From positions 1 to 33,571 of the forward strand of contig PS015291.1 of the NCBI GenBank assembly GCA_048213135.1: 33,571 nt of DNA. The letters are read 5' to 3'. Numbering within the stretch: the first letter of the stretch is position 1; each line of letters opens with the position of its first letter. The notes under the pieces were generated by a model, which had not been told where the DNA came from, searched no databases, and saw only the letters and a list, made by a program, of their open reading frames with translations. This DNA is from Reclinomonas americana ATCC 50394 (lineage: Eukaryota). Of the stretch, positions 8,029 through 31,017 are shown in pieces. The position numbers and the translations under genes are program-made.

Positions 8029-9160
8029 GAGGGTGACGCGTGTGAGCCAGCCAGTCACAACACGCAAAACACTTCACCCCCTACGCAACACTGTGGTTCC
8101 ACGACCCTCCAGGCAGTCCTTGAGCAGCAAGCCGAGCATGCTGTCCTCGTAGTGAATCTCGCTGGTGGGCCGGCGCTCGGAGATGTCGCGCAGCAGGGCG
8201 CGGAGCGTGCCGAGAGACGGGTTCGGGTTCATGTCGCGCTGTGCGCCCTTGTTCGGCTGTCGATCAATCAGCGAGTGCGCGAGGTCGACGAGCACAAGCT
8301 TGCCAGTGACCGACGTCTTGGTCAGCGGCCTGAACGAGTCCACGAACAGCGTGTACACAATGTGTGAGCGGTAGCTCTCGCGACGCAGCACCACCCGGTC
8401 AAAGAGATCCTGCTCGTGTCGGATTCGTCAGACTCGCGCAACAAACACACACATAAAATGTTACACAAACGAACCACCAGCGAGTCTTCGCTCTCCACTG
8501 TCAGCAACTTGACATTGCGCAGGAACACATGCTGGCCGTCTTGCTCGTAAACAATCGATTCTGTCGAGGCGACGACGTGCGCGTGAGATTTTCCATCAGA
8601 GACACTGTTCTTGTCATAAAGATGAATGCACTCACCGTTGGTGAACTCGTCGTCCGAGAGAATGTCGCGGACACGGTTCTCCAGCACCTCGATCACGCTA
8701 ACGCGCAGGCGCACCTGGCCGCGGTAGCTCAACTCCTGCCGCTTGGCCTCAATCTGTCGATATGCGCGACTGACAATGCCAGGCTCAGGGGCCAGGCCCT
8801 TGGCTGTCGGCTCGCGACCGTGCAGGGAGAACTCCTTGCAGGCGCTGCCGAGGCCGTAGAACAGCAGACCGACGGCGTTGCCCTCGAACAGCGAATCCAC
8901 CATGGGTTCCAGAGGCGCGTACACCTCCTGCAGCAAAAGGTGAGCGACGCGAGGAAAAAATGTCGAGTAAAGCGAGTGGGACGGCACTCACCGGCTGCGT
9001 GTTGAGGTGATCAAACACGTGGTCAAAGTCGTAGCTGCGCGCGGCGTGCTCCACAAAGGTAATGGAGCGCGCATTGTCCACATCCATGGCGGCGGTCGGG
9101 TTCGAGAACCACTCCGATCCGGTAAATGGTCGCACACGGCAGTACACCTTGACCGTACCC
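8029..9160 (-). other. Kinesin-like domain 6 (degenerate; end in gap)
   Basis: GTVKVYCRVRPF; YDFDHVFD; FYGLGSACKE; YRSHIVYT; GKLVLVDLAHS; IHYEDSMLGLLLKDCL. Confidence 0.85.
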
Positions 9161-12100
9161 GGACCGCGTGAAGCCGCTGCACGAGAAACGGGAAATCGGA
9201 GCGTGAGATATTGACCAGCCAGACTCCTTTTGATGATGACTGAGACGCAACGAGTATCCGACGCCTGCGAACACATCCACATGGTGGCGGGGGCCATTGG
9301 GCGCGTCGACGATGCCGGTGGTGATACCGACTTGTTCGCACGCGCGGACGATCGACCAGCGCTTGATGCGCTGCGCGGACCGGGGCTCACTGTGGAGCGC
9401 GACGATGCCGTGGGCTGGCTCGACGCTGACGGCGGTGCACTGGCTGCCGCAGTCACTGCCGGTGCCTGTGTTTGTGTGTGTGTGGTTCATCACTGTCAGC
9501 AGGAGTGCAATTGTGACACGAGAGTGCAACAACTCGGCTCTGCACGCACCCGCCGTGGACTTCTGGTGTGCTTCACGCCCGCAAACTTGAGCGTGTTCAG
9601 CGTTTCGTCCACATCGAGTGCCGACGGTGACACGTGCAGGAACAGACTGCACCGACAAACGTCAGACTCAACGATGACAACGACAAGCAGAACACTTCCG
9701 GCGCGTCACACACGCAACATGGTGCGGAATGTCCGGCTAAACACATGCTGCAACAGCATGGTCAGCTTGTTCTCGCGCCAGCGCGGCACACGGTGGGTCG
9801 ACGGATCCATCATGTTGCGCAGCAGGTTGCGCAGCGAGTTCAGCGACTGGTTGACGGCCACAGAATCGGCCTTGACCTGCAGGAGGAGAACAGAATCGAC
9901 ACTTGAGGAGTCGAACAATCGCTGCCACCACCGCACTCGAACAGACACGAAACTTCGATTTCAGTGCGCGTCTTGAACGCACGCTCGGAGCCGGCCAGAT
10001 CCGCAAAGAACAGCGAGCCCTGAGCCGGCGGTGAAGACGGATCCGACAGCGAACGGAGCGTCACCACCACGCGGAAGAGCAGGTGTGAACGATCGGGAGT
10101 GCGGCGAGACATGGCCTCCTCCAGGCACATCTGCATCACCGAGGTCAACAACAACTGGGGAAACCGAGACACACAATCGCCAGCGCCACTACCCACCATC
10201 GCATCCTCGAAGCAATCGACACGCATGTGAACTGCACCACGCACAAAAGCGCGATTGCGGCTCTTTGACATGTGCACCGTCAACTTGGGTACCAACTCGT
10301 CCTCATTCTCCGGCTCGTACAGCAGATCGGTAATGTCCTCGCCGCACACTTGCAGAATGCTCCACACCACGTCGGTCACCTCGAGATCGTAATCTGCTCA
10401 CAAACAGTGAGACGAGAGGAACACGACACCACTTCCATCCAGCAGCACACCCACCTTCCAGTTGGCTCGGATCTTCGCTGGCAATCGCCTCACGCTGCGC
10501 ACGGGTGCGCATGAAAATGCGGTTCAACGACCGTGCCAACAGACCTGGGTGCACAGGAATTCAGCAAAAGGCATGTCCACCGAAATCAAGATGCTTGCCA
10601 CACGTACCAGGATCACGCGGCTCGCCCAACATGGTGTGCGTCTTGCCGGCGCTCAACTGGCCGTACGAAATAATGCAGCTCTCGTGACCCGACAGGCACC
10701 ACTCGAGCACATCGTCCACTGAAGCAGCCGCCTCCTGCTCAGCAGCAACCATCGGTCAGTCATCGTCGAGAGGCAGCACGTCGGGGTCGACGCAACATCC
10801 TGAGTGACATTGTAGTCCAGGGCTCGGTCCACCGAGTAGTACTTGTACTCTTGCGACTTGACCTCGACACGCACAGTCTTCTCGTCCGGCATGTCGACAG
10901 CCGGCGAGTACTCACCATGCTCCATCTCCAGGCGGTTGAGTGGGCGCACACGGCAGAACACACGCAACGCGCCAGAACCGAGCAAGCCTGATGTGGATTC
11001 CAATCGTGAGAAACAGCGAGAGGCGAAAACACATTCGACGGGTACGCAACTGGCTCCTGACACGGCCGAATCGGGGCGCGGAATCGGAGACTCGCGCGGC
11101 GTTTGTGTGGCCAGCGTCGGGCGCGCCTTGATGCGGTGGCCGAGAATCGAGCGGCCAAAGATCATGGTCTGTCGGCTTCCCTCCACGTCACCCTCCGTCG
11201 GTGCCACATGCAGGAACACACTAATGGAACAAATCGCGGTGAGATGCACGCCGACAGCAACTGTATCAAAAAAGGCACGCACATGGACTTGGCCGGGGGC
11301 TGCAGGCAGTCGCGGCACACCATGGCGATCTTGCTCTCGCGCCACGGGGCACGTCCTTGAATGAGCTTGTGCAGCACATTCTGCAGAGCGGCGAGCGAGG
11401 CGTTCGGGTTGACCTCCTCCACGGCGGCCTGCGTCGGCACCAATCCAGTGGCCAGCTCCACGAAGCACAGCTTGCCCACGGTCTTGGTCTTGGTGCGCGG
11501 GTCAAACACCTCCACCCACAACGTCACCAAAATGTGCGCCTTGTACGTGCTGCGATGTGCCAGCGAGTCCGTCACCACCTCCATCACGTCGTGGTACGTG
11601 TCCACCGGCACGACTTCGACATGCTCCAAGTACACCTCGCCCGACGCCATCATGCGCACCGACGGCTGACGAGCGGCAGCCAAGCTGCGGCGCTTGGCAT
11701 CGGCGCTCTTCTCGGCCGACGAGCTCGTCACAAAGTCGGGTCTTCGTGGCCGCGACTTGCGCGGAGCATCGTCCGTTGTCAACACGGCAGAAGTCTTGCG
11801 CAAGTGATCCTTGGTCTCCTTGGCCATCAAATCGACCATGGTGTCACCCTGCTCGCACATTGACAGAATGAGCGCCTCTAATCTTGCAATGGTACAAAAC
11901 ACACTGTCATGTAGCGCGCCACGCACCCGCAGCTCCAAGACAGACGCGCGAATGGTGATTGTCTCCGTCTCCTCGTCGACCTTGCGCTGGAAGAAGCGAT
12001 GGCACACCAACCCCAACATCTCTGGTGGTCACACGCAAACACTGGGCGTCAGCCAAACGAAAAAGCAAAAAAAACTTGTAGAAAAACAAGTACACACCAC

Positions 12101-15100
12101 TGGAGAAGCTGCTCTCCTCCAACGCCTTGCCACTGTCCATGGAGCCGGCGCAGAAAATGGCAGCGCCGTAGCCGTTCATGGCATGCGTCGCCAGTTCGTC
12201 GACGTGCTTCTCCGCCGACTGTTACGCGCACACAACAAGAGCGGTGAGATGGAACATTGCCGCTGCATGTGCTACCCGTGCGTGCAACTCNNNNNNNNNN
12301 NNNNNNNNNNNNNNNNNNNNNNNNNNNNNNNNNNNNNNNNNNNNNNNNNNNNNNNNNNNNNNNNNNNNNNNNNNNNNNNNNNNNNNNNNNNNNNNNNNNN
12401 NNNNNNNNNNNNNNNNNNNNNNNNNNNNNNNNNNNNNNNNNNNNNNNNNNNNNNNNNNNNNNNNNNNNNNNNNNNNNNNNNNNNNNNNNNNNNNNNNNNN
12501 NNNNNNNNNNNNNNNNNNNNNNNNNNNNNNNNNNNNNNNNNNNNNNNNNNNNNNNNNNNNNNNNNNNNNNNNNACCAGTGAGCACACAGCGAACAGAGAA
12601 ACATGAATCAGTCGGCAATCCGTCGCAACTCCAGTGGCTTCCATGTTCTCCAGCGGCAGCACCAACGCGTGCTCCACGTACACCTCACCGGCGCGAGTGA
12701 CGCGCAGTGCGAGGCGCTCCGACGGCGGCACGTCCGTGTCACTGTTCTCAAACGCCGTGCGCAGCAGGTCCTCAATCTCGTCCGACGGCGTCAAGCGCAC
12801 CACCGAGGCGCGCACCGACACCACAGTGCCCGACGACTGACGCATCGATTCGGCCTGCTCGAACAGCTTGCTCAGCGACAGCGGCAGCACACCTACCACC
12901 AGAACATGTGAGAAACGCAATCCAGCAATGGATGGGAAACGCACTTCATCACTCACCCCACTCGCTCTCGCCCAACAACGTGAACGTCTTGCCAGAGCCG
13001 GCATCGCCGTAGAACAGCATCGAGGAGTCGTTGCCCTGCAGGGCCCAGTCCACCAGCTCGACGGCGCTACCAAACACCTCCGACTGCGTGGCCTCCGGGC
13101 CATAGGCGTGATCCATCAGGAACGACTTGCCGTTGTTGAGGTAGACAGTGTCCTCGTCGGCGATACGCGAAATGCCAACGCGATCGACCACAGTCGGATC
13201 ATTGTCCTCTTCCTCGTTCAGCGGGCGCACACGAGAAATCACACGAATGTCACCCGGCGACTCGGCAGCCTCCGACTTGCCAGCCGCAATAAACTGGTAC
13301 GTCGGCTTGACCGACTCGTACTTCTGTCGCATTGACCACCAACAAAAGTTAGTTCACCACAGCGCAAGAGCAGGGTCGAGCGCAAGGGCACGAAACTCGG
13401 CCAGCAAGCTCGCGGCGAATGTCTGCAAACTGCATCGTCAGCAGGTTGTCCTCCAAGTCGTGCTCCATTGGTGAAATATGCGTGTAGAGCAGAATGCGCG
13501 AGTTGAACTCCATGCAATCGCGGACGAGGTGCGTCAGCTTGTTCTCGCGGAAGCGCGGGTACGACTGCGACTTGCCGGCGTCCATGATGCAGCGCATCGT
13601 CGATCGCAGGTGCATGAGGGTCTGGTTGGCCACGGTGCTGCCGGAGGTGATGTCATCGCGGTAGTGTGCCTGCTCAGGCGTCGGCAAATCCACCAAGGCG
13701 ACCTTGCCCACCAGCTCGTCACCCGTGCGTCGGTTGGTCGTCTGCACGTAAATAATGATCACCAAGCTCGTCAGCAGGCGTGCGACACCGTGCTCCAGCG
13801 CGCGGAGGCGACGGGCGACGCCCGGCACGCGCTGCGCGTGGAGAACAAAGGAGAAAATAATGATGTGAGACCATCCATCAGGTGAAGCAGAAAAATAGTC
13901 ATGTCGACGCACCCACAGCTCCTCGGCATCCATGCGCTCGGTGACCACATTCTCCAAAATCGTCTCGCCATTCGCGGCGGTGCGGATGACAACCTTTTCC
14001 TGCACGAGGCATTACTGTGTCAAGGCAGGATTGCAAACACGACGGCCACCGGTGAAGCAAACCTTGGCAGAGCGACGGCCCACCAGGTCGGAAATCACAT
14101 CGCCGTCCACATCGAGCACCGCACACGTCCAGCGAATGTTCTCAATGTCGGGATGATCGGGGGCGCTGTCGCGAATCTGGCGCGTGAGCTCGCTGATCAG
14201 GTGACCAAAGAGTCCCTGGTTCGGCTCGTCCGGCGTGCCAAACATCGACGCCAGCTTGTCGCCAGACTTGGCGCCATACGCAAACACCGACGAGGAACGG
14301 CCGTCCAGAGCACCGTCAATCAGGCTCTTGAAGCGCGCACGAATCACGTCGTCGTCGACGGTCGGCGGGAAACCCGTGTCCACCTTGAACGTGGATCCGT
14401 CAATGAGGTCGACCTGGTGGCCGTTGAAGCCCGAGACCACCACCGACTGCACAGCAGAGGCGAAAAGTGAGTGGCGGCGAGAATAAAACAAGAAAAAATA
14501 TAGCACGTTCTCCTACAACTCACCGTCGGTGGCTCCTCGTTCGCCTGTCCGCGCTCCTCCTCGGCGTACTGGCGCACACGAGTAACGACCTTGACGTCGC
14601 CGAAAACGCGCTCGCCGTCGGCTCCGAAACCGAGCTGGTTCTGCGAGCCCTCACCAGCACCGGCCGGACCCATTTGCTCGGCCACGCGCGACTTGATCGA
14701 GCGCGAGCTCACCGGTCCACTGGCGCCATCGCCACGCTGCTGCTGCTGGCCCTCGTCTCCGTACCAGCCAAAGTGCAGCGTCTGACGCGTCTTCTCCAGC
14801 TCGCTGGCGGTGGGTGCAACCGTCAAAATGACGGCCAGCGACGCCGGTTCCGTGAAAAAGTCCTTCAGGAACATGGTCAGCTTGCTTTCGCGGTAGCGCA
14901 CCACCGGCTGATCGCCCGCATGCGCCGGCGGCTCAGCCAGTGCGCGGAGCACGTTGCGCGTTGCCGTCACCGACTGGTTGGTGCGAATGCCCTCGGGACT
15001 CAACTGTGTGGCAATAAAGTGAATACGTGGCGAGCGCAATAGCAACGCGGGGGAAAAGAGGCGACGCACCACCATGCGTCCGGCGCGATTCGTGCGCACA

Positions 15101-18050
15101 GCCGGCACCAAATCCACGCACACAATGCGGGTCTCGAACACCGTGGCCTCTGCGATGAAGAGAAAAGCGAATCAGGTGACGAGCGAGAAATCGATCTTCG
15201 TGCGCGCATACTCAACTGTCTTCCTCGCCCGGCATCCATGTGGACACGAACACGTTGAACGTCACGACCACGTGGGCGACAGATCGCAGGGCCGCCTCGC
15301 CGTCGGCGTTGATGAATGACACAAACGTGCGCGCGCCAAACGACTGCTGCAGTGTCTCCTGTAGTCGACAGATTGAGAACGACAAGGAAGGACAAAAGGA
15401 GGAGAGTCAAAGAGAACCAACCTTCAGCACATCGGCATCCTCGCCCGGACGCTCATCGAGGCCCTTGAAGATCACCGAGTGACCAATGACGCGGACGCTG
15501 ATTTTGCTGTCCTCGCCGCGCGAAGCCTTGATGAGGTCATTCGCTTCGTCGCCGCACATTTGCGCCACTGAGTAGTTGAAGGCCAGCGAGCCGTTCTCTC
15601 CCGGCTCACCAAACTCGAACGATGCCGGATCACGCTCCAGTCGGTCACGTTGTGAGCACAGCTTCTGGCACACCGTCAACAGGAACTCTGCACGTCGAGT
15701 AAGCAGACTGCCCGTTATCAAACAGACTGCGCGCGCACAGAGACGTACCCTCAAAGACGCGACCACGGCCAGACTCCACGTGGCCGTGGAAAATCAGGCA
15801 TCGGTTGTGTCCGCGCAGAGCATCCACGACGGCTGCACTGGTGATCTCCTCGACCACCTCACGCTTGGTGTCCGACGACACAACGCGATCGTAGTCGTAG
15901 CGGTGTCCGTCGGGGAGCACCACAGTGTTGCCGTCGACCACCTCGTAGACCTGCATGGGGGGGTGAGTGAGAGTGAGTGTGGAGAATATGTGCTTTTGCG
16001 ACAGTGAGGGGGAAGCGCACCGGACGAGCGTTGCCATTGTCTGACTCCTTTTGCGTGAAATTGCGAGAAATGGTCTGCACCGAGAACGGGCGACGCCACT
16101 CCGAGCCATCCTCGAGCTGCACGGGCGTGCGACCACAGAACACATTGATCTCTGGCTCGACAACCTCCACCGCTGCGCACGAAAAAAATGCGCAGTGAGC
16201 GTCTTTCAGCAGTCAGTGAGTGTGAAGAGCGCACGCAACGAGCAGAGGGTGCAGGCGGCGGGCGCTGGACCACAGGCGCTGGAGCCTCGCGCTGCTGCTG
16301 CTGCTGCTGTGGGGGCGCAGCTTGTGGAGCCTTCGGCGGTGACGGAGGCTTCTGCTTCGGGCTCTCAGGCTGCACGTTCCACCAACAGTGTCAATGACCA
16401 CACAGACAACAGTACACACACACACACACACGCAAGATCAAACACACCTTTTCAGGGCTGGACTCGGGCGTCGGGTACTCTGGCGGTGGGGGCGCTTGCT
16501 TCTTCGGCTCCGGCGGCGGAGGCGTGTAACGCAGCTCCTCTTCCGACTCGGCACCGCCCTCGCCCTCCTCACCGTACTCGTACACGTAGTAGTCCTCGTC
16601 AACGAGCTCTTCCTCCACAGCCGCCGCGCTCTTTTGTACCTTGGGCGATTGGCTGTCGCTGTGGTGCGAACACACTCATCGGTGAGCGCCGACTAGCGAA
16701 TAGACGAAAAAATCAAGATCAACAAAACCACGCACCGTGGCTGCTCGCGCATCGTAATCGACTGCGGCTGCGACGACTGCTGTGCGGATCCAGAAGCGGC
16801 ACTGACCACACCGCTCTTCACCTCGGATGCCGCCGGCTGCGCACCCTTGTTGTCGGCGTTCTTCACCGACGGCAATCCGGTGCTCCACACCTCATTGGAG
16901 TCCACGTCGGTGGTGTCACCATCGGTTTCCTCCTCCTCCTCACCGCCACCCTCCTCGTAGTACTCGTAAAAGACCTCCTCGCCACCGACCTCGGTCTGCT
17001 GTACCTCTTGTGTCTGGCGTGAAGCGTCCTCCGCAGCACGACGAGNNNNNNNNNNNNNNNNNNNNNNNNNNNNNNNNNNNNNNNNNNNNNNNNNNNNNNN
17101 NNNNNNNNNNNNNNNNNNNNNNNNNNNNNNNNNNNNNNNNNNNNNNNNNNNNNNNNNNNNNNNNNNNNNNNNNNNNNNNNNNNNNNNNNNNNNNNNNNNN
17201 NNNNNNNNNNNNNNNNNNNNNNNNNNNNNNNNNNNNNNNNNNNNNNNNNNNNNNNNACGTCCACATACTTGGTCGTGGTGATATACCGCGTGGTGACTGT
17301 GTGGGCGTTTCCCTGCGCATCACGTTCCGTGTGCTCCTGAATATCCTCCGACACCTGCGTCTTGTCGTCCAGGTTGTATTGCTGCGCGTGCGCACAAAGG
17401 TGAGTGCAAGAGCGGGGGGAGGAGAAGGGGGAGAGGGAGAGGGAGAGGGAGAGGGAGAGGGAGAGGGAGAGGGAGAGGGAGAGGGAGAGAAGGGAGGGAG
17501 AAAGGGTGGGAGGAGTTGCAGAGTGTGTGCAGGAGAGAGACACAGAGCGTGTGAGAGAGTGTGAGAGTGTGTGCCCAAGGGAGAGAGAGAAGGAGAATCG
17601 CTGTTCCAACGGCACCCACCCTGTGCATTTCGCGATCGCCTGCTGGCGGCAGCTCCTCCTACACATGGATCGATCACCACAGTCAACAACGCGAACGTTC
17701 CACCAGACACACGAGCGATGAGTATACACAACTGCATTCGCCACGACGCGCACTTCCTGCTCGACCTCCTCAGGCTACACAGAACAGACACACACAAGTG
17801 AGGAACACAACGAGGATGACAACCAAGAGACCAGTGATCGCTCACTTCCTCAACGACCTCCTCCACCAGCGGCTTGGGCTGGCCTGCGCATCATGATGAT
17901 CACGGATAAGGATTCGCCTTTGGTGCATGACGACACATGCATGATTCGCACACACACGAACCGCGAGCAAGTTGGCGTGACATCGCAGCTTAAACAAGAG
18001 TCGCAGAAAAACGAACTTTGCTCTTGCTCTGCTCTCTCGCTCCCTTTGCT
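8029..18050 (-). CDS. Giant multi-exon protein: acidic/Pro-rich N-terminus followed by at least six tandem kinesin motor(-like) domains (kinesin-14/KCBP-like)
   Basis: Repeated kinesin landmarks: beta1 (I/V)(R/K)VxxRVR, P-loop region, GKLx(L/F)VDL, (Y/W/F)RExKL, FLHV(S/A)P..ETLxTLxF. Domains 1-2 and 4-5 are joined within single open frames. Domains 2-3 and 5-6 are joined by in-frame GT-AG introns (13324-13396; 9466-9549). The 3-4 junction, the start and the stop lie in or near gaps. Confidence 0.85.
9575..10975 (-). other. Kinesin-like domain 5 (best conserved; possibly catalytic)
   Basis: GALRVFCRVRPLN; SYGQLSAGKTHTM; DRSHLLF; FADLAGSER; VNQSLNSL; PRWRENKLTMLL; FLHVSPSALDVDETLNTLKFA. Confidence 0.9.
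11150..12290 (-). other. Kinesin-like domain 4 (degenerate; start in gap)
   Basis: NGYGAAIFCAGSMDSGKA; SVLELRGDTMVDLM; GEVYLEHVEVVPV; GKLCFVELATG; PWRESKIAMVCRD; IVFLHVAP. Confidence 0.85.
12574..13257 (-). other. Kinesin-like domain 3 (N-terminal half visible; intact P-loop)
   Basis: GDIRVISRVRPLN; FYGDAGSGKTFTL; GVLPLSLSKLF; GEVYVEHALVLPL. The remainder runs into gap 12291-12573. Confidence 0.85.
13410..14601 (-). other. Kinesin-like domain 2 (degenerate)
   Basis: GDVKVVTRVR; AYGAKSGDK; GKVALVDLPTPE; PRFRENKLTHLVRD; YTHISPMEHDLEDNLLTMQFA. Confidence 0.85.
14765..16152 (-). other. Kinesin-like domain 1 (degenerate)
   Basis: EINVFCGRTP; P-loop region FHGHVESGRG; switch II region VDLVPAV; VRYRESKLTMFLKD; ILTVAPTASELEKTRQTLHF. 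Confidence 0.8.
17425..17500. repeat. (GAGAGG)n microsatellite inside an intron
   Basis: About 10 hexamer copies, directly visible. Confidence 0.95.
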
Positions 18051-19057
18051 GCAACACAAACAAACGAGTTGAGTGGGCGAGAATCGTGACAGAAAGATCA
18101 GTGCGAATCGCAACATGCAATGCACATCGCGCAAGACACAGTGACACGCTTATATAACGAGATGGAGATAGAGAAGAAGAAGAAGAGCAGCACTGCATGT
18201 GCGTCAGTGTGCAAGAAGAGTGTGACAGTGACCGACATGGCGGAGAGGCACTGTGTGACACACACACATGCGCACAAAGAGATGCAACGCGCGCTGTGTG
18301 CTGCACGCGGGGGACGACATGCACAGTGTCTGCGTGCGCGAACATGCACAGAGGCAAGAGAACTGCGCGGNNNNNNNNNNNNNNNNNNNNNNNNNNNNNN
18401 NNNNNNNNNNNNNNNNNNNNNNNNNNNNNNNNNNNNNNNNNNNNNNNNNNNNNNNNNNNNNNNNNNNNNNNNNNNNNNNNNNNNNNNNNNNNNNNNNNNN
18501 NNNNNNNNNNNNNNNNNNNNNNNNNNNNNNNNNNNNNNNNNNNNNNNNNNNNNNNNNNNNNNNNNNNNNNNNNNNNNNNNNNNNNNNNNNNNNNNNNNNN
18601 NNNNNNNNNNNNNNNNNNNNNNNNNNNNNNNNNNNNNNNNNNNNNNNNNNNNNNNNNNNNNNNNNNNNNNNNNNNNNNNNNNNNNNNNNNNNNNNNNNNN
18701 NNNNNNNNNNNNNNNNNNNNNNNNNNNNNNNNNNNNNNNNNNNNNNNNNNNNNNNNNNNNNNNNNNNNNNNNNNNNNNNNNNNNNNNNNNNNNNNNNNNN
18801 NNNNNNNNNNNNNNNNNNNNNNNNNNNNNNNNNNNNNNNNNNNNNNNNNNNNNNNNNNNNNNNNNNNNNNNNNNNNNNNNNNNNNNNNNNNNNNNNNNNN
18901 NNNNNNNNNNNNNNNNNNNNNNNNNNNNNNNNNNNNNNNNNNNNNNNNNNNNNNNNNNNNNNNNNNNNNNNNNNNNNNNNNNNNNNNNNNNNNNNNNNNN
19001 NNNNNNNNNNNNNNNNTAATCCGTGTGCGAAACTGAAACCTTGGTGGTGTGTGGTAG

Positions 19058-22000
19058 GCTGTGCGGGCTCGACTACTTGCACAAGCAGCATGTGTGCGTT
19101 GTCAGTCGCCTTCCGTGACTTGGTGGTGTGCCTCGCTTGCTGATACAGACGACCACGTGCAGGGTGCATCGCGATCTGAAGGGCAAGAACGTGCTGATGG
19201 TGAATGGCGCCGATGGGACGGTGATCAAGCTGGCCGACTTTGGCTGCAGCACGCTGCTGTCGACTGGTCGGCAGGCTCTGACTGCTGGTGTCGGCACGCC
19301 CGGTTGGACGGCTCCCGAGGTGTTCAAGGGCGTCGGCTACGACACCAAGGTCTGCATGTGTGTGTCTGGGCATCGAGCGAATGTCGTGCGCCCCACTCAC
19401 GCCATCGTGATCAGGTGGACATTTGGAGTCTGGGTGCCACCGTGCTCGAGTTGTTCACCGGGCAGGTGCCGTACTCGGAGCTCACCAATGTGGTTTGTGG
19501 CAATGGTGGATCGTGCTGCACCGTCCATAACTTTGACACTGACAGCGACGACATGCGCAGCCGGCCGTGATTTACAAAATGATGACAACGGCAGAGCCGC
19601 CACTGATTCCGGCCGACTTGTCGGCGCTGGCCAAGGACTTTCTCTTGCTATGCTTCAGAGCGTTGCGTGGTTGCGCTGTTGTTCCTCGTCGTCCTTGCTT
19701 TGATTTCTCACGACGACGACAACAGAAATCCCGCCGATCGACCCACCGCCGAGGACCTCATGTCGCATCCGTTCATCACCAGTCATCCACGCCACGCTGA
19801 CGCCGGGCCGCTGCCACACGCACCGGTTAGGCTGCAGAGTGCACGTTTTGTCTGTTGCCCACGATGCACTCATCCCCGTCTCACACATCACACAGCCGTC
19901 ACTAGGCGGATCGGGATCCAGCTCGGGTGAGTCGCCGCCATCGCTCTTGTTTTCCCGCCTATCGCTGACACTCATGTACTTTGTGTGCTGGTCGGTGCAG
20001 GATCAGGAAGCATGCACAGTCTCATGTCGAACAGGAGAGGTGGGTCGCTCCATCCTTTGCACTCGAAATTCACTCCAATCACACCTCTCCGTGTAGTCGA
20101 AAGCTCCGACTTGATACACCAGATGCACCGAGTGGCCGCCATTCCCATCAATGTGAGCATCAGCCCCGTGGGTCGATCGCCCACTGCCTCGTCGTCATCC
20201 GCCGGCGATTTTCGAGTTGAGTGTGCTGCTACCACGTCGTCCTCTCCTCCATTCGACTCACCTGCTTCACTGCACTCTTCTGGGCGCAGTTGTACACCTT
20301 GGTGCGCAAGGCACCGCACGCACCACGCTGGATTTTCCCGTCACACGCCGCCATGGCCGAGTCGTTGATCGACAAGTTGGTGCACGACGGATGCATGCGA
20401 GGTGCGTGATCTCCGTCTTCTCCCACTCTCCCTCTCTGTGTGCTCTGACACTGCAGGTGCACCAGGCGCGACTGGCATTATTGTGATTGAGGGACTTGCC
20501 GGCTTTGGCAAGAGCACTCTCGCATCATTAATCATCGATCGCATGTGGGAGCGCAAGCTGGTGCGCGGACACGTGCTGTACGTGGATCTGTGCGGTCATT
20601 TGGAGAGTCAGCAACATCGCACCAGTGCCAGCGCCGTGGAGCAGCTCTTTTTGCAGCTGAGTGCACCACGTGCCGAGTGGCTGCTGAAACAGAACACGGA
20701 GCCGGCGGTGTTCATGCAGTCGTTTTACGCGGCACTGGCTGTGGAGGCGCCGGAGGAGCGCGCCGTGGTGTTTCTCGACAATGTCGGGTCCGCCGAGCAG
20801 CTCAAGAGAATCATGCCGCGCGACATTACGCACGCATGTTGCGTGGGCGAAGGCATCACTGCTGCCGTCGCTCCGTGTCGTGAGTTCTCATTGTGATCGT
20901 GCAGATGGCGGCGCGTGCGGACCACTGTTTCTGGCCACCAGCCGACACTCCATCTCGCCGTCGCTGGCCGCCGACCTGCCGCGCGACGTGTCGCTGGCCA
21001 CTGCGCGTACGGAGCAGCTCACCGAGGGAGACTTGACGGCGTTTGTCGAGTTCCACCACCCCGATGCCGACGAGCATGTGCGCCGCCTCCTCCTCTCCAT
21101 GAAGTATCCGTTTGCACTCGGCACTGTGTCGAGGTGCTCCTGTTATGCGTTGTCCTCGTCGATCTGTGTCTCGTTTCACTCACACAAGTATTGCCAGCGC
21201 ACTAAAACGCGAAGGAGCCTTCTTGTCGTCGTCGGAACTGGAGGCTCTGTGTGCACAATTGAACCGCGAAGCCTTTGAGGATGTGCTGGACTCGACAGTG
21301 CGCCAGCTGACTCAACCGCAGCGACGCGCATTGCTGTCGTTGGCTGCGGTGGAGCGACTGCCGGCCGTCAGTATGAGGCTAATTGTGGTGCTGGCGGCGG
21401 AGGTGGTGGATCCGCTGCCGTCAAGTGACGGTGCGGCAATAGCGACCTCACCGCGTTCTCGTGACACCATGGTGGTGACGTACCTGCGTGGCTTGCTGGC
21501 CGATCACTCGCTCCATGTGGTCGAGCGAAACGGGCATTGCATCGTGGCGTGGTCGTCGAGTTCACCGGAAGACCGTGACACCGACCTGCCGACGTGTGTC
21601 ACCTTCAACACGCACAACCTGTATCCGGACTACTTCCGCCTGCGGTGGCCTCGAGCATTGACACAGGCGCAGGGCACACTCATGCGTCTGTTGTCGGCCC
21701 TCATCCGCAAGGCGACGTTGCAGGAGAAGGCCCAGGCGCAGTTGATGAGCATGTTTGGCGAGCACGTCAAGGCGCTGTGGGACTACTTGGCCGACGGCCG
21801 CTTCGACAGCGACTTGCCGTTCTGGCTAAAGACAATCGACGCGGTGTGCGAGGCAGCGCGTGTCACGCCAGCGAGATTCCGCGAGCGAGTTGGCGACGTG
21901 CTGCGCGCCATCTCCACGCCTGCAGTCACCAGCGCGATGGAGGCCGACGACAACGTGGCCGCCGCGGTGCACAAGTCGCGCAGTCTGCTGTACCATCTGG

Positions 22001-23610
22001 GTTTGGATGAACGGCGGTCGATGGAGGAGATGGAGGAGAGCTTGCGGCTGCGCATGCGCGCGCATCCCGGTGATTCTGCACCGGAGGTGATTCAGGCGCA
22101 GCACGACCTCGCCACTGCGTGCCGCCGCTGTCCTGCACACGTGGAGAAAGCAGTGGCCCTGTTCCGCGCCGTGCACGCTGCGCGCAGGGCGCAATTGGGT
22201 GAGGTGCGAAAGTTTTCGAGGGTACCAGGGAGTTTAGATTTGTTGGGTAACTCACTGACTATTGTATCAGGATCACTGCGACACACTCGGCGTGGCTGGT
22301 GACCTGGCCGAGGCCCTTCATTTGTCCGGCAACTTCCAGGAGGCCTCCAAGATACTGGTGTCGGTGGTGCAAAAGTGGCAGGCGCTGCACGGGGCAGCTG
22401 ATCCGCTTACGCTCACGGCACTCAGCCATTTGGCTTCCGTGTTGCGCTCTCAGGGCTTTTTGTCCGAGGCCGCAAAGCTGTACGAGAGGGTGCGTACTCT
22501 GTTTGAGGAGGGTCTGTCTCCTCATTCGGTAGCGTACTGAAAGGAGTGGCAATAGGTTCGTGTGGGACTGGAGACCGCACTCGGTCCGAATCACAGCGAT
22601 GTGCTGGCCGCAATCAACAACCTGGCCACGGCAAGTTTGCACCCTGCACGAATGGTGCCGACTTTTGAACGTGCTCTCACTGTTCTGTGCGTGTGCAGAC
22701 GTGGCGTGAATTGGGGCGAGTCGCCGAGGCCGTCACACTCCTCACGGACTTGGCCGACACGAAGCGTCGTTTGCTCGGCGCCGAACACCCGGACACGCTC
22801 ACTACTTGTTTCGTGTTTGACGCCACGTCCATGATTCCTTCATCGTTCTGTCGCTCACCCAGTCCACGTAGTGAACAACCTGGCACTGGCCATGGAGGCA
22901 CAGGAGCCACCGGACTTGGCCGGGGCGGCGCGACTGCACGCCATGGTCCTCGAAACCCGCACACGCACACTCAGCAGCGCCCATCCAGACACGTTGCGTG
23001 ACGATTGTTGGCGTCGCTGGTGAATGTGTGCCGCTCACGTGTATATATGATCGTCGGCAGTATCGTGTCGGCCAATAATCTGGCGGTTCTCTTGCGACGG
23101 CAGCATCACCACAGTGAGGCAATTTCGTTGCTTCGGGAGAGTGCCGAACGCGCGCAACACATTCTGGGTCCCGACCACCACTTGGCGCTTACGGTGCGCG
23201 CCAATCTGGCCTCTGTACTCGACGAGGCTGGATTTGTGGAAGAAGCCGTGGGGATGAACGAGGATGTGTTGGAGCGTCGGCGACGTGTTCTCGGTCCCCT
23301 GCATCCCAATGTTGCGTGCTGCAGGCTGGTGATGTTGTCAATGGTACGTGCCAGCAGCACTGACTGTGGTCAGCGGGTACAGACACTGGTATCCATGGTG
23401 AACTTGGCGTTGCTGTACCACGAGCGGCAGCAACGCACGGCAGACGCCATTCCGCTCTTGTCGACCGTGCTCGAGGAGCGCAAGCGCACGCTCGGCGACG
23501 ATCATCCGCTGACACGGGCCGTGCGCGTGGATCTCGACAACGTGCGCAGCTCTTTACCTGCCGCACCAGCAGCAGTAACAGCACCGCCACCACCACCACC
23601 ACCACCATAG
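19058..23610 (+). CDS. Ser/Thr kinase (MAP3K/STE11-Cdc15-like) fused to a STAND NB-ARC-type NTPase and C-terminal TPR repeats (NLR-like architecture); kinase N-lobe in gap 18371-19016
   Basis: Kinase: GLDYLHKQHVVHRDLKGKN, KLADFG, GTPGWTAPE, VDIWSLG, RPTAEDLMSHPF. NTPase: Walker A GLAGFGKS, Walker B VVFLDNV, sensor-like LATSR, YPFAL. TPRs: LGxxHPDTLxxxNNLA-type repeats. All exons splice in frame to TAG at 23608-23610. Confidence 0.85.
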
Positions 23611-23722
23611 AAAGGGGACGAGCAAAGTAGGAGGCAAGGGGGGAAAAACAATAAGGCATTATAATCACGATTGTTTCCTCGCGCATGTTCCATTCGCATT
23701 GTGCCTTCTCCTCCACGAAATC

Positions 23723-26560: not shown

Positions 26561-27016
26561 GAGTGACCGCCTCTGCTGATTCAAACAGCAACACTACTAC
26601 ACCGTCTTCAATGAGCACCAAAAACTCGCGCAAAGTCGAAATCGAAGTGCGCGTACGCGTCCACGGCCAATGCCGGCATTTTCGCAGGCAAGTTCTAGAG
26701 AAACCACAACTTGTTTCAAGCATGCAAATGGATATGAAGCCTTATCGACAACGTTCTGAAAGAACGCAGTGACGTTGCGCATGCGGTCGACGTCGATGGC
26801 GAATTCGAAGCCGAAGTCACGCAGCGCTGCGCATGCACGCGCATCGATTTCGATACATTTTGCTGCCTCTCGCTACAGCACAGATGCCCATCGCTCGCAC
26901 CTGTCTACCTCGGTTGCCACAATTCGGCAATCACATCGTGTCTGGTTTCATGCAACCTGTCATGTCCATTTCCGCCAACTCTTGTTGTCCGTCCCTTTTT
27001 TGATCACTTGGGAGCC

Positions 27017-28678
27017 ATGATCTTCACGCTCTGCTTTCTGTACTCCTCCTCCTGGTTCTATGCGGCGGTGCTGGGTGGCTCAGTGGCGGCCGGTGCGCTG
27101 GTGGGGGCGCTGCCCAATGGAACGCAGCGGGTGGAGTGGTCGTGGAAACGCTTTGCGAAATCGACGGGGCGCTTCCTCCTCGGTGGTCTCTGCTTCCCCT
27201 GGAGTTTTACTGTGCAAGTATATTTTGCACCACTTGGGATTCTTGGCGAAATGGCCGGGGAGGCGGCCATGAAAGTGCACGGGGAGATGGAAACCCAACG
27301 TGCTCATGTTGAAGAGCACAAGAAGCAACTTGCAGCCGCCGCCTCAGTCACACACCAGGCGCGTGAGATGGCGCAGCTGGTGACTGAACTGCAAGCTGAG
27401 GACGAGGCTCACTTTGGCATCCACAGTGTTCCATCTCGGTGGCGCTGCTCTCTGACAGGAGTGGTGAGTGGCAGAGACTCCTGTCTGGTGCAAATTATGA
27501 GTCGCCTCACGTTCGTTGTGCAAACAGGTCATGCGCACTCCAGTCTCTGTAAATGGCCAGGCGGCACGGTGCGAGCGGCTGTGCTTGGAGCTGGTATTCG
27601 CAGAGTTCCTGGCGCTCGGAGTGGTGCTGCGCGATCCGGCTACCGGTGAGCCGATGCGTCTCGACCAGCTCGCGCAGACAGTCAAGCACGATGAAGCGTT
27701 GTGCGAGGAGATTCGGCGCGGACGCGAAAGGGCCCGTGAGGCCGACGGATGGGACGTGCTGTTGGACGCTGACGAATTCGTCGTTGCCGACGATGCTGGC
27801 GACGCCGGCGCACGTGTAGAGGGGCTCCTCCAAGCACACACGCGTCACTGGCTGCGCGAGATTGCCTCCGCGCACGTTGAAGTGCCACCTGCTGATGCTG
27901 ACGAAGACGGTGAGGGAGACGGCGCAGGCGAGTGGGTGTTGTTGCGCTCGGACGCCTTCACCAGACCGGCGGTGATCTCCCCTGCCAATGCACGAGAGAT
28001 GGCCAGCAAGCTGATGCTCGGCGCGGAGGCCTACATCATCCGCAACGCAGAGATCAGACCCAAAGAGCGGTGCCGAGACTGCGGTGACTCTGACTGGTGC
28101 CTCGGCTATCGACTGCCGTGCGGTCACGTGATGTGCCGTCAGTGGTAAGCCAGTCACTGCCGCCTGCGCAATCGCTGTCCCCTTTTGCTCACACCCTACC
28201 ACAGTATCGCAGACATGGTGCCAGCTGACGAAGCAGCAATGGTGGTCGACCTCGATCGTGACCTCGATCACGAAGCCGGCGACCTGACATGCGCTGCAGC
28301 GGGCTGTGATCAAGGTACGCACAAAATCTCACTGCATCACACTCGCGATCGCCTCTCCTCTCATTCCTACCTGCGTGTGTGCATGTAGGCATTCCGTGGA
28401 TCGTCATGTACCACGCAAGCGACCTCGGCTGCGCGCATCGCGAATACATGGACGCCGAGAAAGCTGTGCAAGTCACACACGAAATGATGGATCGATTGCA
28501 TCACGGAGAGGAAGGGGAAGAAGAAGAAGAACGGGAACAGGAGGAGGAGGAGGTGGAAGAAGAGGAAGAAGACGAGGAGCCCATGGTGCGACCATTATGC
28601 CTGGTAGATGTCGTCCTGCGCTGCTTCGTCGCAGAAGAAGCGCGACTGATTTTGCTGCGCGAGTCTGTCGCCGATTGA
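27017..28678 (+). CDS. Putative E3 ubiquitin ligase, paralogue A: hydrophobic/TM N-terminus + U-box-like + RING (C3HC4, RBR RING1-like) + acidic tail; 3 introns
   Basis: U-box-like: VPSRWRCSLTGVVMRTPVSVNGQAARCERLCLELVF...RDPATGEPMRL...DEALCEEI. RING: CRDC-x11-CGHVMCRQC...CAAAGC, with the Cys of CRQC formed across an intron (TG|T). Stop TGA at 28676-28678. Confidence 0.75.
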
Positions 28679-29310
28679 GTGTAAACACGCCTAATTACTG
28701 TGAGGGTTGTTGAGTCGCCTGTTCACGAGTGACTTCCGTGCAGGAGATGCAATCAGGAGACCAGGCCTAGGAGAAGACCTAGTCGGCATGAACTACAGTG
28801 CCGGAAACGGCAGCGTTACCGACACTGCCTCTCATCCCAGCACGTGGCGCGTCTCCATCGATAGCAGTCACCCGTGCAGAGCACCACCACATAATGCAGA
28901 CAGCCTCATCGCAGTCCCACGCCTCTTCTCACCATTGCATACGACGAAAAAATCGATCACCCGAGAAAATTCGAGCTCGCGAGTCTCTGAGAGCGTCGAG
29001 TATTTTGTTACAAAAGAGCGTGCAAGAGTTCGACACGTAGAGGGAGAGAGCACTTCCTTGCGCTCACTGGCAGAACGCGCAGCGTTCATGCTGCACGTCC
29101 TCGCCTCTGCTCTCTCTCTCTTTCTGTGAACCACTGTCACGATCGCACGTTTGCTGGTTCTCCAGTATTATCAACACCAGCTGCCCTGCAGGCTTGCCTC
29201 TGCCGCCACAAGTCGACAACCGCGTCATGCCTGGTTTCATGCAAAACCTGTCCATTTCTGCCCTTTCCTGTCGTTCCTTCTTTTTTTGGCTACTAGAGAG
29301 CAAATACAAT

Positions 29311-31017
29311 ATGATCTTCTCGCCCCTCTTGCTGTACACGTGCCCTTCGTTCTACGCGGCATTGCTCATTCCCTCAGCCATGGTTGGCACATTTGCGAGT
29401 CTGCACCCCAACGGCTTTGGACCCGGTGCCATGGAGCTCCGGAGCTGGTCATGGAGAAGATTTTCGCGGTGGGCGGGATCGTATTTCGTCACCACCGGTC
29501 TTGTCACGCCCTTGATCCCAATCGGGCTTACTGTTCTTGCAATCGGGCTTACTGTTCATGCTGCCGGGAGCACGACCATGCAAGCCGTGCAGCTGCTTGC
29601 GCAGCGCCGACACGAGCGCGCCGCACTGCGCACGTATACGTACACCCATCAACAGCAAGCGCATCTTGCAGCCGCTGTCACAGTCACGCCTAAGGCGCGC
29701 GAGATGGCACAGCAGGTGACAGAGATGCAAGCTGAGGACGAGGCTCACTTTGGTCGCCACAGTGTTCCATCTCGGTGGCGCTGCTCTCTGACAGGAGTGG
29801 TGAGTGGCAGAGACTCTTGTCTGGTGCAAATTATGAGTGGCCTCACGTACGTTGTGCACACACAGGTCATGCGCACTCCAGTGTCCGTGAACGGCCAGGA
29901 GGCACGGTGCGAGCGGCTGTGCTTGGAGCTCTTATTTGCAGAGTTCCTGGCGCTCGGAGTGGTGCTGCGTGATCCGGTTTCTTGTGAGCCGATGCGTCTC
30001 GACCAGCTCGCGCAGACGGTGGAGCACGATGAAGCGTTGTGCGAGGAGATTCGACGTGGACGCGAAAGGGCCCGCGAGGCCGATGGGTGGGACGTGCTGT
30101 TGGATGCTGACGAATTCGCCATGGCCGACGATGAAGACGATGCCGGCGCACGTGTCGTGGCGCTGCGCCAAGCACACACACGTCACTGGCTGCGCGAGAT
30201 TGCCTCCGCGCACGTTCAAGTGCCACCTGCTGATGCTGACGAAGACGGTGAGGGAGACGGCACAGGCGAGTGGGTGTTGTTGCGCTCGGACGCCTTCACC
30301 AGACCGGCGGTGACCTGCGCCACCCAGGCACGAGACCTGGCCAACAAACTGATGCTCGGCGCCGAGGCCTACATCATCCGCAACGCAGAGATCAGACCCA
30401 AAGACCGCTGCCGAGACTGCGGTGACTCTGACTGGTGTCTCGGCTATCGACTGCCGTGCGGTCACGTGATGTGCCGTCAGTGGTATGTCAAACGCTGCCG
30501 CCTGCGCAATCGCTGTCTCCTCGCACTAACTCACATACACTCTTTCCTACCACAGCATCGCAGACATGGTACCAGCTAACGAAGCAGCAATGGTGGTCGA
30601 CCTCGATCGTGACCTCGATCACGAGGCGGGCGACCTGACATGCGCTGCAGTGGGGTGCAATCGAGGTACGTCTGAAGCAGGCACTCTCCGCTTGCACTCG
30701 CCTCCCTGCTCACTCCTACCTCTGTGCCAGGCATCCCGTGGATCGTCATGTACCACGCAAGCGACCTCGGCTGCGCACATCGCGAATACATGGACGCGGA
30801 GAAAGCTGTGCAAGTCACACACGAAATGATGGATCGATTGCACGACGGAGGAGAAGAAGAGGGGGAAGAAGAAGAACGGGAACAGAAGGAGGAGGAGGAG
30901 GAACAAGAAGATGAGGAGTCCATGGTGCGACCACTATGCCTGGTGGATGTCGTCCTGCGCTGCTTCGTTGCCGAAGAAGCGCGACTGATTTTGCTGCGCA
31001 AGTCTGTTGCCGATTGA
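29311..31017 (+). CDS. Putative E3 ubiquitin ligase, paralogue B (same architecture and intron positions as A)
   Basis: Starts ATGATCTTC as A does. U-box-like and RING regions are near-identical to A, with the same three introns. Stop TGA at 31015-31017. Confidence 0.75.

Follow-up and report, generated by a model that had tools for sequence, protein, structure and literature searches.

The window analysed here, a stretch of 33,571 nucleotides (nt) from Reclinomonas americana ATCC 50394 (contig PS015291.1, forward strand), is eukaryotic DNA of about 60% GC interrupted by eight N gaps. Between positions 19058 and 23610 of its plus strand, in one gap-free stretch, lie in this order the C-lobe of a protein kinase, a P-loop NTPase belonging to the STAND class (signal transduction ATPases that have numerous domains), a helical arm, and an array of TPR_10/TPR_12-type tetratricopeptide repeats (TPRs), as the original prediction had described. 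The best explanation of the locus as a whole, to which we give an even chance, is one 5′-incomplete gene of at least 17 exons, encoding a single polypeptide of which at least 1163 amino acids (aa) are visible and which would work as a STAND-switched kinase. The narrower proposition that both halves belong to one gene and are read in a single frame is probably correct, judging from the sequence.

Frame changes, GT-AG boundaries and the continuity of the domains served to rebuild the exons, and the resulting model is free of frameshifts and internal stops. It begins at 19058, the first base past an AG acceptor, just beyond an assembly gap of 646 N (18371-19016) that is evident both in the gap list and in the sequence. 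The beginning of the gene on the 5′ side, and with it the N-lobe of the kinase, is hidden by this gap, and no kinase-like or clearly coding stretch is found on the plus strand at 17281-18370. The model ends at 23610, the final base of a TAG stop (23608-23610). Beyond it, only 112 nt (23611-23722) separate this stop from that of a convergent gene, identified as cactin by its CactinC_cactus match (7e-33), which makes the locus very compact. This spacer, of 47% GC, is the sole sure intergenic spacer. A search with the C-terminus of this cactin gave best identities of 62-77% to metagenome proteins and to eukaryotes scattered over the tree, the top-scoring match owing its rank to a duplicated domain, so that the matches point to no single lineage.

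The readable part of the kinase is distributed over five exons and reads YLHKQHVVHRDLKGKN, DFG, APE, DIWSLG and HPFI in this order. The first readable exon (19058-19093, ending in LCGLDYLHKQH-V) follows the upstream AG acceptor. The second (19163-19349) carries the catalytic loop HRDLKGKN, the DFG motif, the activation segment and the APE motif, and matches Pfam Pkinase (PF00069) at 52.5 bits (6e-14, profile positions 120-176) against a cut-off of 31.7; like all Pfam runs reported here, this was made on a single exon. Between DFG and APE the activation segment holds seven Ser/Thr residues. The third exon (19415-19489), with subdomain IX and DIWSLG, reaches 21.7 bits at profile positions 177-199, the fourth (19561-19661), with subdomains X-XI, is placed by its frame and GT-AG junctions, and the last (19726-19825, containing RPTAEDLMSHPFI) completes the domain. 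Membership in the protein kinase superfamily is therefore plain from the profile score and from the HRDLKGKN, DFG and APE motifs, all of which were located where the original prediction had placed them. That prediction also called the C-lobe intact; it is indeed readable, but the N-lobe, with its Gly-rich loop, VAIK lysine and alpha-C glutamate, lies in or beyond the gap.

The type of kinase was approached by searching three of the five exons against PDB sequences. The 62 aa of exon 19163-19349 matched 408 kinase sequences at E<=0.001, the best being CaMKII, followed by TAK1 and STK24; the top 12 rows for the 25 aa of exon 19415-19489 were all ASK1/MAP3K5; and the best match of the 33 aa of exon 19726-19825 was MAP4K3 (E 0.0027). 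The "MAP3K-type" label proposed earlier is reduced to a hint: the C-lobe appears to lean towards the STE group, which is a lean and not a classification.

The P-loop NTPase has its Walker A motif GLAGFGKS and its Walker B motif VVFLDNV in exon 20457-20837. The following exon (20905-21133) contains LFLATSR, which is sensor-1-like, and KYPFAL, which is GxP-like, both recognized by reading the sequence. The four motifs listed in the original prediction (GLAGFGKS, VVFLDNV, LATSR and YPFAL) are all present at the positions given there. Among the Pfam profiles, NPHP3_N (27.4 bits, cut-off 24.8) is the sole NTPase family above its cut-off on the P-loop exon, with a match that spans only profile positions 21-85 of 164. 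Below their cut-offs (in brackets) are NACHT with 25.0 bits (26.7), AAA_16 with 23.0 (32.6), nSTAND3 with 18.8 (27.2) and NB-ARC with 16.6 (23.5). Together with the Atlas neighbours of the exon, which are bacterial AAA_16/nSTAND3/NB-ARC clusters (score 0.92), these matches and the presence of Walker A and B agree with the predicted grouping of the NTPase with STAND proteins. The more specific assignment to NB-ARC is a hint and no more, since the profile remains below its cut-off on the first NTPase exon, the likeness of LATSR and YPFAL to NB-ARC motifs (the family being marked by RNBS-B (TTR), GLPLA and MHD) is one judged by eye, and the best family is NPHP3_N/NACHT. A word-indexed homologue search with the P-loop exon gave nothing, PDB sequence searches with the NTPase exons gave no match below E 0.3, and PADLOC and NCBIfam returned generic P-loop matches only, below any cut-off. 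For exon 20905-21133 and for the presumed winged-helix part, no match came from Pfam, PADLOC, NCBIfam or the sequences of the PDB. Because only NPHP3_N exceeds its cut-off and the later part of the NTPase has no matches, the module is called here a STAND-class NTPase, and no subfamily is assigned. A further peculiarity is found in the Walker B motif (20765-20776), which reads FLDN, with an Asn after the Asp. In NB-ARC and NACHT proteins an acidic residue is usual at this position, and its replacement by Asn may slow hydrolysis.

A large exon of 338 aa (21189-22203) connects the NTPase with the repeats and is presumed to contain the end of the helical domain, the winged-helix-like part, the helical arm and, in degenerate form, the first repeat. 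Its Atlas neighbours are TPR_12 clusters (0.95-0.96). A single-sequence AlphaFold2 (AF2) model of this exon, with a predicted local distance difference test (pLDDT) of 55, comprises helices, a beta hairpin at residues 108-121, a strand before FNTHNL and then an all-helical part; this low-confidence model is compatible with a winged helix. A Foldseek comparison of the model with the PDB gave no matches at E<=0.001 and TM-scores of at most 0.2, a result that we regard as uninformative. The corresponding stretch of 339 aa (21184-22201) showed no relative in the word-indexed search. With phmmer, 1.84e9 representatives yielded two matches, both to MucBP-repeat LPXTG proteins with 6-7 matched stretches each, and they were rejected as repeat artefacts.

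The 3′ part of the gene consists of six exons (22271-22489, 22556-22630, 22699-22807, 22863-22992, 23061-23310 and 23383-23610) that encode the repeat array and a poly-Pro tail, the last of them ending in the TAG stop. Single exons of this group match TPR_10 with 89.7 bits (7.7e-26) and TPR_12 with 83 bits (1.7e-23). Of the families named in the original prediction, Pkinase, TPR_10 and TPR_12 are consequently above cut-off on single exons, while NB-ARC, AAA_16 and NACHT are below. Counted from the ATG at 20353, the NTPase-TPR part has 894 aa in ten exons (20353-20401 to 23383-23610), and HP[DN]T-type anchors occur at its residues 560, 602, 644, 686, 733, 775, 817 and 860, that is, with spacings of 42, 42, 42, 47, 42, 42 and 43 aa. 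A degenerate extra unit lies upstream, at residue 518, so that the seven to eight repeats of about 42 aa announced earlier become eight in register plus a degenerate one. The array is a C-terminal superstructure-forming repeat sensor of the STAND kind, built from 42-aa TPR_10/TPR_12 repeats of the kinesin light chain (KLC) type. No LRR family was found in any exon scan, and the protein is not an NLR in the strict sense (NBD-LRR, nucleotide-binding domain plus leucine-rich repeats), its sensor being made of TPRs. The units are 5-40% identical to one another (mean 20%) and are therefore old and diverged, which sets them apart from hypervariable fungal NLRs, whose repeats are near-identical. A tblastn search of the 33.6-kb window with the spliced products returned self-matches only, without a paralogue.

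Outside the linker, 13 introns of 55-72 nt are well supported, 12 of them GT-AG and one GC-AG (22631-22698), and in every one a motif resembling a branch site, CT[CGA]A[CT], lies at a distance of 6-32 nt from the 3′ end. The donors of these introns (19094-23382) are atypical: GTTGCGTG occurs in four, GTGCG(T/A) in another four and GC-AG in one, and none of the 13 has a canonical GTAAGT or GTGAGT donor; GTGAGT appears only at the candidate linker intron that starts at 19927. An "introner" origin of the common GTTGCGTG donors was considered and rejected, since the best pairwise score between introns was 10 against a shuffle maximum of 11, meaning that the introns are alike in the donor and not beyond it.

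Up to this point the domains and their order, the kinase and Walker motifs, the array of repeats and, outside the linker, the exons and introns are shown by the sequence. The kinase-NTPase junction (19826-20352), on the contrary, is a model. In the preferred path, three introns (19826-19895, 19927-20000 and 20216-20289, of 70, 74 and 74 nt), each with a branch-like motif, separate the exons 19896-19926, 20001-20215 and 20290-20401 and give one open frame of 1163 aa; it is the most economical path. One of the linker donors, GTTGAGTG, differs by a single base from the GTTGCGTG found in 4 of the 13 firm introns. The linker that results has 119 aa, of which 52% are Ser/Gly/Pro/Thr/Ala and 18% are Ser. 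A part (20153-20289) of the Ser-rich stretch of the original prediction may be intronic. A continuous spliced frame across the junction, also claimed there, does exist; it is not, however, unique, since lax rules admit 4021 stop-free GT/GC-AG paths. Strict rules, in which donors and acceptors are scored from the introns of the gene itself, lengths are restricted to 50-140 nt and a branch motif is required, leave 30. Any such path appeared in 3% of 300 dinucleotide shuffles and 30 were reached in none of the 300, which indicates that the linker holds intron-like structure. An open spliced path taken alone as proof of fusion was nevertheless rejected, given the 4021 lax paths and the lack of enrichment of the right phase (30 of 86 strict stop-free paths), and for the latter reason the phase match is itself not evidence.

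Coding potential offers better evidence on the junction. Codon log-odds were trained only on the kinesin and cactin exons of the window, and they average +0.29 bits/codon in true frames and -0.56 in off-frames. The read-through tail of the kinase beyond 19825 scores -1.11 bits/codon, an intron-like value, and the kinase open reading frame therefore most likely splices on at 19825. On the other side, the 21 codons located 5′ of the ATG at 20353 in the same frame (20290-20352) score +0.47, a value reached by 0.1% of 2002 off-frame windows, 2.7% of 3005 antisense windows and, over the whole stretch, 6.5% of 5813 stop-free windows. A score of -0.36 was obtained for the 23 codons in front of the acceptor at 20289. 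Frame 1 contains no ATG in 20221-20352, back to the stop at 20218-20220. Since the segment 20290-20352 is coding-like and has no ATG, the NTPase exon seems to depend on a coding partner that lies upstream. The GC content stays at 50% or more in every 80-nt window from 19020 to 23610, and the linker is hence devoid of a low-GC spacer. In exon 20003-20215 the GC content at third codon positions is highest in the proposed frame (0.63 vs 0.51 and 0.54), which is only mildly higher.

Several observations weigh against a single STAND-switched kinase gene, and most of them are also what the leading alternative would expect. According to this alternative, which we regard as unlikely, there are two adjacent genes on the same strand: the kinase would end soon after 19825, at the read-through stop 19928-19930 or in a short terminal exon, and an effector-less STAND-TPR gene would start at the ATG at 20353 or, in a small first exon, at the ATG at 20012 or 20024. 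STAND cores usually begin about 20 residues before the P-loop, and the ATG at 20353, in GCCGCCATGG context (MAESLIDKLVHDGCMR), stands at about this distance, in the exon part (20353-20401) that directly precedes the NTPase core on its N-terminal side. Over 20003-20152, the larger part of the 215-nt linker exon, the codon scores are not those of coding sequence (-0.15 bits/codon in the full model and -0.40 in the independent one trained on kinesin and cactin), and the absence of phase enrichment described above points the same way. With convergent stops that lie 112 nt apart, this locus could conceivably also hold two genes with a short spacer. No homologue with the kinase-NTPase-TPR architecture, or of the NTPase-arm part, was found by word-indexed or phmmer searches, which leaves the fusion without comparative support. 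In addition, what has been described from Ectocarpus (24 genes) and from Acanthamoeba are kinase-less NB-ARC-TPR proteins, proposed as pathogen receptors (PMC3341825, PMC4053784). Against two genes stand the strongly non-coding tail of the kinase, flanked by a donor, a branch motif and an acceptor, all of the local type; the coding-like segment without ATG upstream of 20353; the fact that a start at 20012 would leave about 80 nt after the kinase stop, into which a terminator and a promoter would not fit; and the lack of a low-GC spacer. Of a different kind, and also unfavourable to a STAND-switched kinase, are the unseen N-lobe, which leaves catalytic competence unproven, the missing matches of exon 20905-21133 and the winged-helix part, and the low pLDDT of the model of exon 21189-22203.

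Other features were noticed elsewhere in the window. On the minus strand, 8074-15171 holds at least five kinesin motor-domain units in tandem, detected as pieces of Pfam Kinesin. In the open reading frame 14344-15171, one motor ends (TLHFG) and another starts (VKVVTRVRQYAEEE) about 60 aa further on in the same unbroken frame. Around 13350-13420, two motors are separated by about 76 nt that resemble an intron, with GTTTCGTG as donor, CTAAC as branch, CAG as acceptor and phase 0 on both sides. This tandem is either an unusual multi-motor polypeptide or a series of tandem genes almost without spacer. On the plus strand, two tandem units (26738-28328 and 29041-30576) share near-identical translated stretches, with a likeness that extends to the opposite strand at 27347-27844 and 29748-30182; no Pfam match was obtained in either. 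Scanning the window for Rfam families and for tRNAs gave no matches.

If the preferred single-gene reading is right, the protein would comprise, from the N-terminus, a Ser/Thr kinase with an STE-like C-lobe, a linker of about 119 aa, a STAND module (P-loop NTPase, helical domain and winged-helix-like part), the arm and eight 42-aa TPR_10-type repeats. STAND proteins with TPR sensors have been described as autoinhibited ADP-bound monomers that, upon binding of an inducer, open, bind ATP and multimerise (PMC6468293, PMC4381067). By analogy, in the resting state the TPR sensor and the arm would keep the NTPase closed on ADP, and binding of a ligand by the TPRs would lift this autoinhibition. ADP would then be exchanged for ATP and the protein would multimerise; the clustered kinase domains could trans-phosphorylate each other's activation segments and, once active, phosphorylate downstream targets. 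An immune or allorecognition role, suggested by the architecture, is speculation.

In this regard, a fused protein that is not a non-self receptor was also considered. In nephrocystin-3 (NPHP3), KLC-type TPR_10/TPR_12 repeats come after a P-loop NTPase, and no kinase is known to be fused to it; the P-loop and the KLC-type TPRs are thus common to the NPHP3 family (PF24883 NPHP3_N, PF24885 TPR_NPHP3) and the gene described here. The protein might accordingly be a housekeeping scaffold of the nephrocystin-3 type, or its kinase might be a regulated or decoy module instead of the output. This explanation is less probable still than two genes. It draws on NPHP3_N as the best Pfam family of the P-loop exon and on a weak TPR_NPHP3 match in the last TPR exon (15.8 bits, cut-off 100), but NPHP3_N, NACHT and NB-ARC overlap in their scores, none of which is strong, and this makes the family call soft. 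The repeats are old and diverged as well, and the lack of a paralogue, in a search that covered this one window, gives no suggestion of a fast-evolving receptor family. With respect to decoys, fungal PKinase NLRs are rare, 12 being reported in Sordariales, and kinase domains of fungal NLRs have been read as integrated decoys; the nine Sordariales proteins read in this way, however, carry the kinase at the C-terminus, whereas here it is N-terminal, the usual effector position (PMC12258605).

The kinase-STAND-repeat layout is already known from other organisms, among them Mycobacterium tuberculosis, fungi and a moss. PknK of M. tuberculosis is described as a STAND serine-threonine kinase of the MalT subfamily (PMC4381067). 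Like the fusion proposed here, it combines an N-terminal Ser/Thr kinase, a STAND module and a helical-repeat sensor, and inducer-dependent multimerisation is the expected logic; the resemblance is one of architecture. PknK is bacterial and of the MalT subfamily, whereas the NTPase here agrees best with NPHP3_N/NACHT-type profiles and is followed by KLC-type 42-aa TPR_10 repeats. In fungi, TPRs account for 25% of the annotated C-terminal domains of NLRs (Dyrka et al. 2014, PMC4986451; PMC12258605), and the fungal PKinase NLRs described in these sources share with the proposed fusion a eukaryotic STAND-type NTPase (NACHT/NB-ARC in fungi), repeats (ANK, WD40 or TPR in fungi) and a protein kinase. 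In contrast to them, the NTPase-arm region in R. americana has no detectable relatives. The kinase-NLRs of the moss Physcomitrella patens also have an N-terminal kinase, a STAND NTPase and a repeat sensor, but with a bona fide NB-ARC and LRRs, in place of the sub-threshold NB-ARC and TPR sensor found here (PMC7145615). Finally, in Ectocarpus and Acanthamoeba a STAND NTPase is likewise followed by a TPR array whose coding exons are split by introns, whereas no kinase fusion is described in the available sections of those reports (PMC3341825, PMC4053784). For Ectocarpus, one exon per repeat and exon shuffling are reported (PMC3341825, PMC4053784), while here only three of the six array introns lie no more than three residues from where a repeat starts, and the units have diverged. 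Our literature searches turned up no kinase-STAND-TPR protein described from a protist. This does not prove that none exists, and the supplementary tables of NLR surveys may list some.

A broader and more tentative proposal is that the gene may encode an independently assembled, kinase-effector NLR-like receptor from a eukaryotic lineage that has been poorly sampled, with an arm lacking detectable relatives among 1.84 billion representatives. Such a receptor would sense non-self or stress as a kinase gated by a ligand and activated by oligomerisation, and it would be the fourth independent origin of a kinase-STAND fusion after those of bacteria, fungi and moss. The value of the finding is at present limited by the junction model and the missing 5′ end. 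If the fusion is real, a eukaryotic microbe would join the short list of lineages that wire a kinase directly to a STAND switch, which would support the repeated assembly of "effector - NOD - repeat sensor" proteins from common parts, and phosphorylation would provide a simple, assayable output for STAND activation outside plants and animals.

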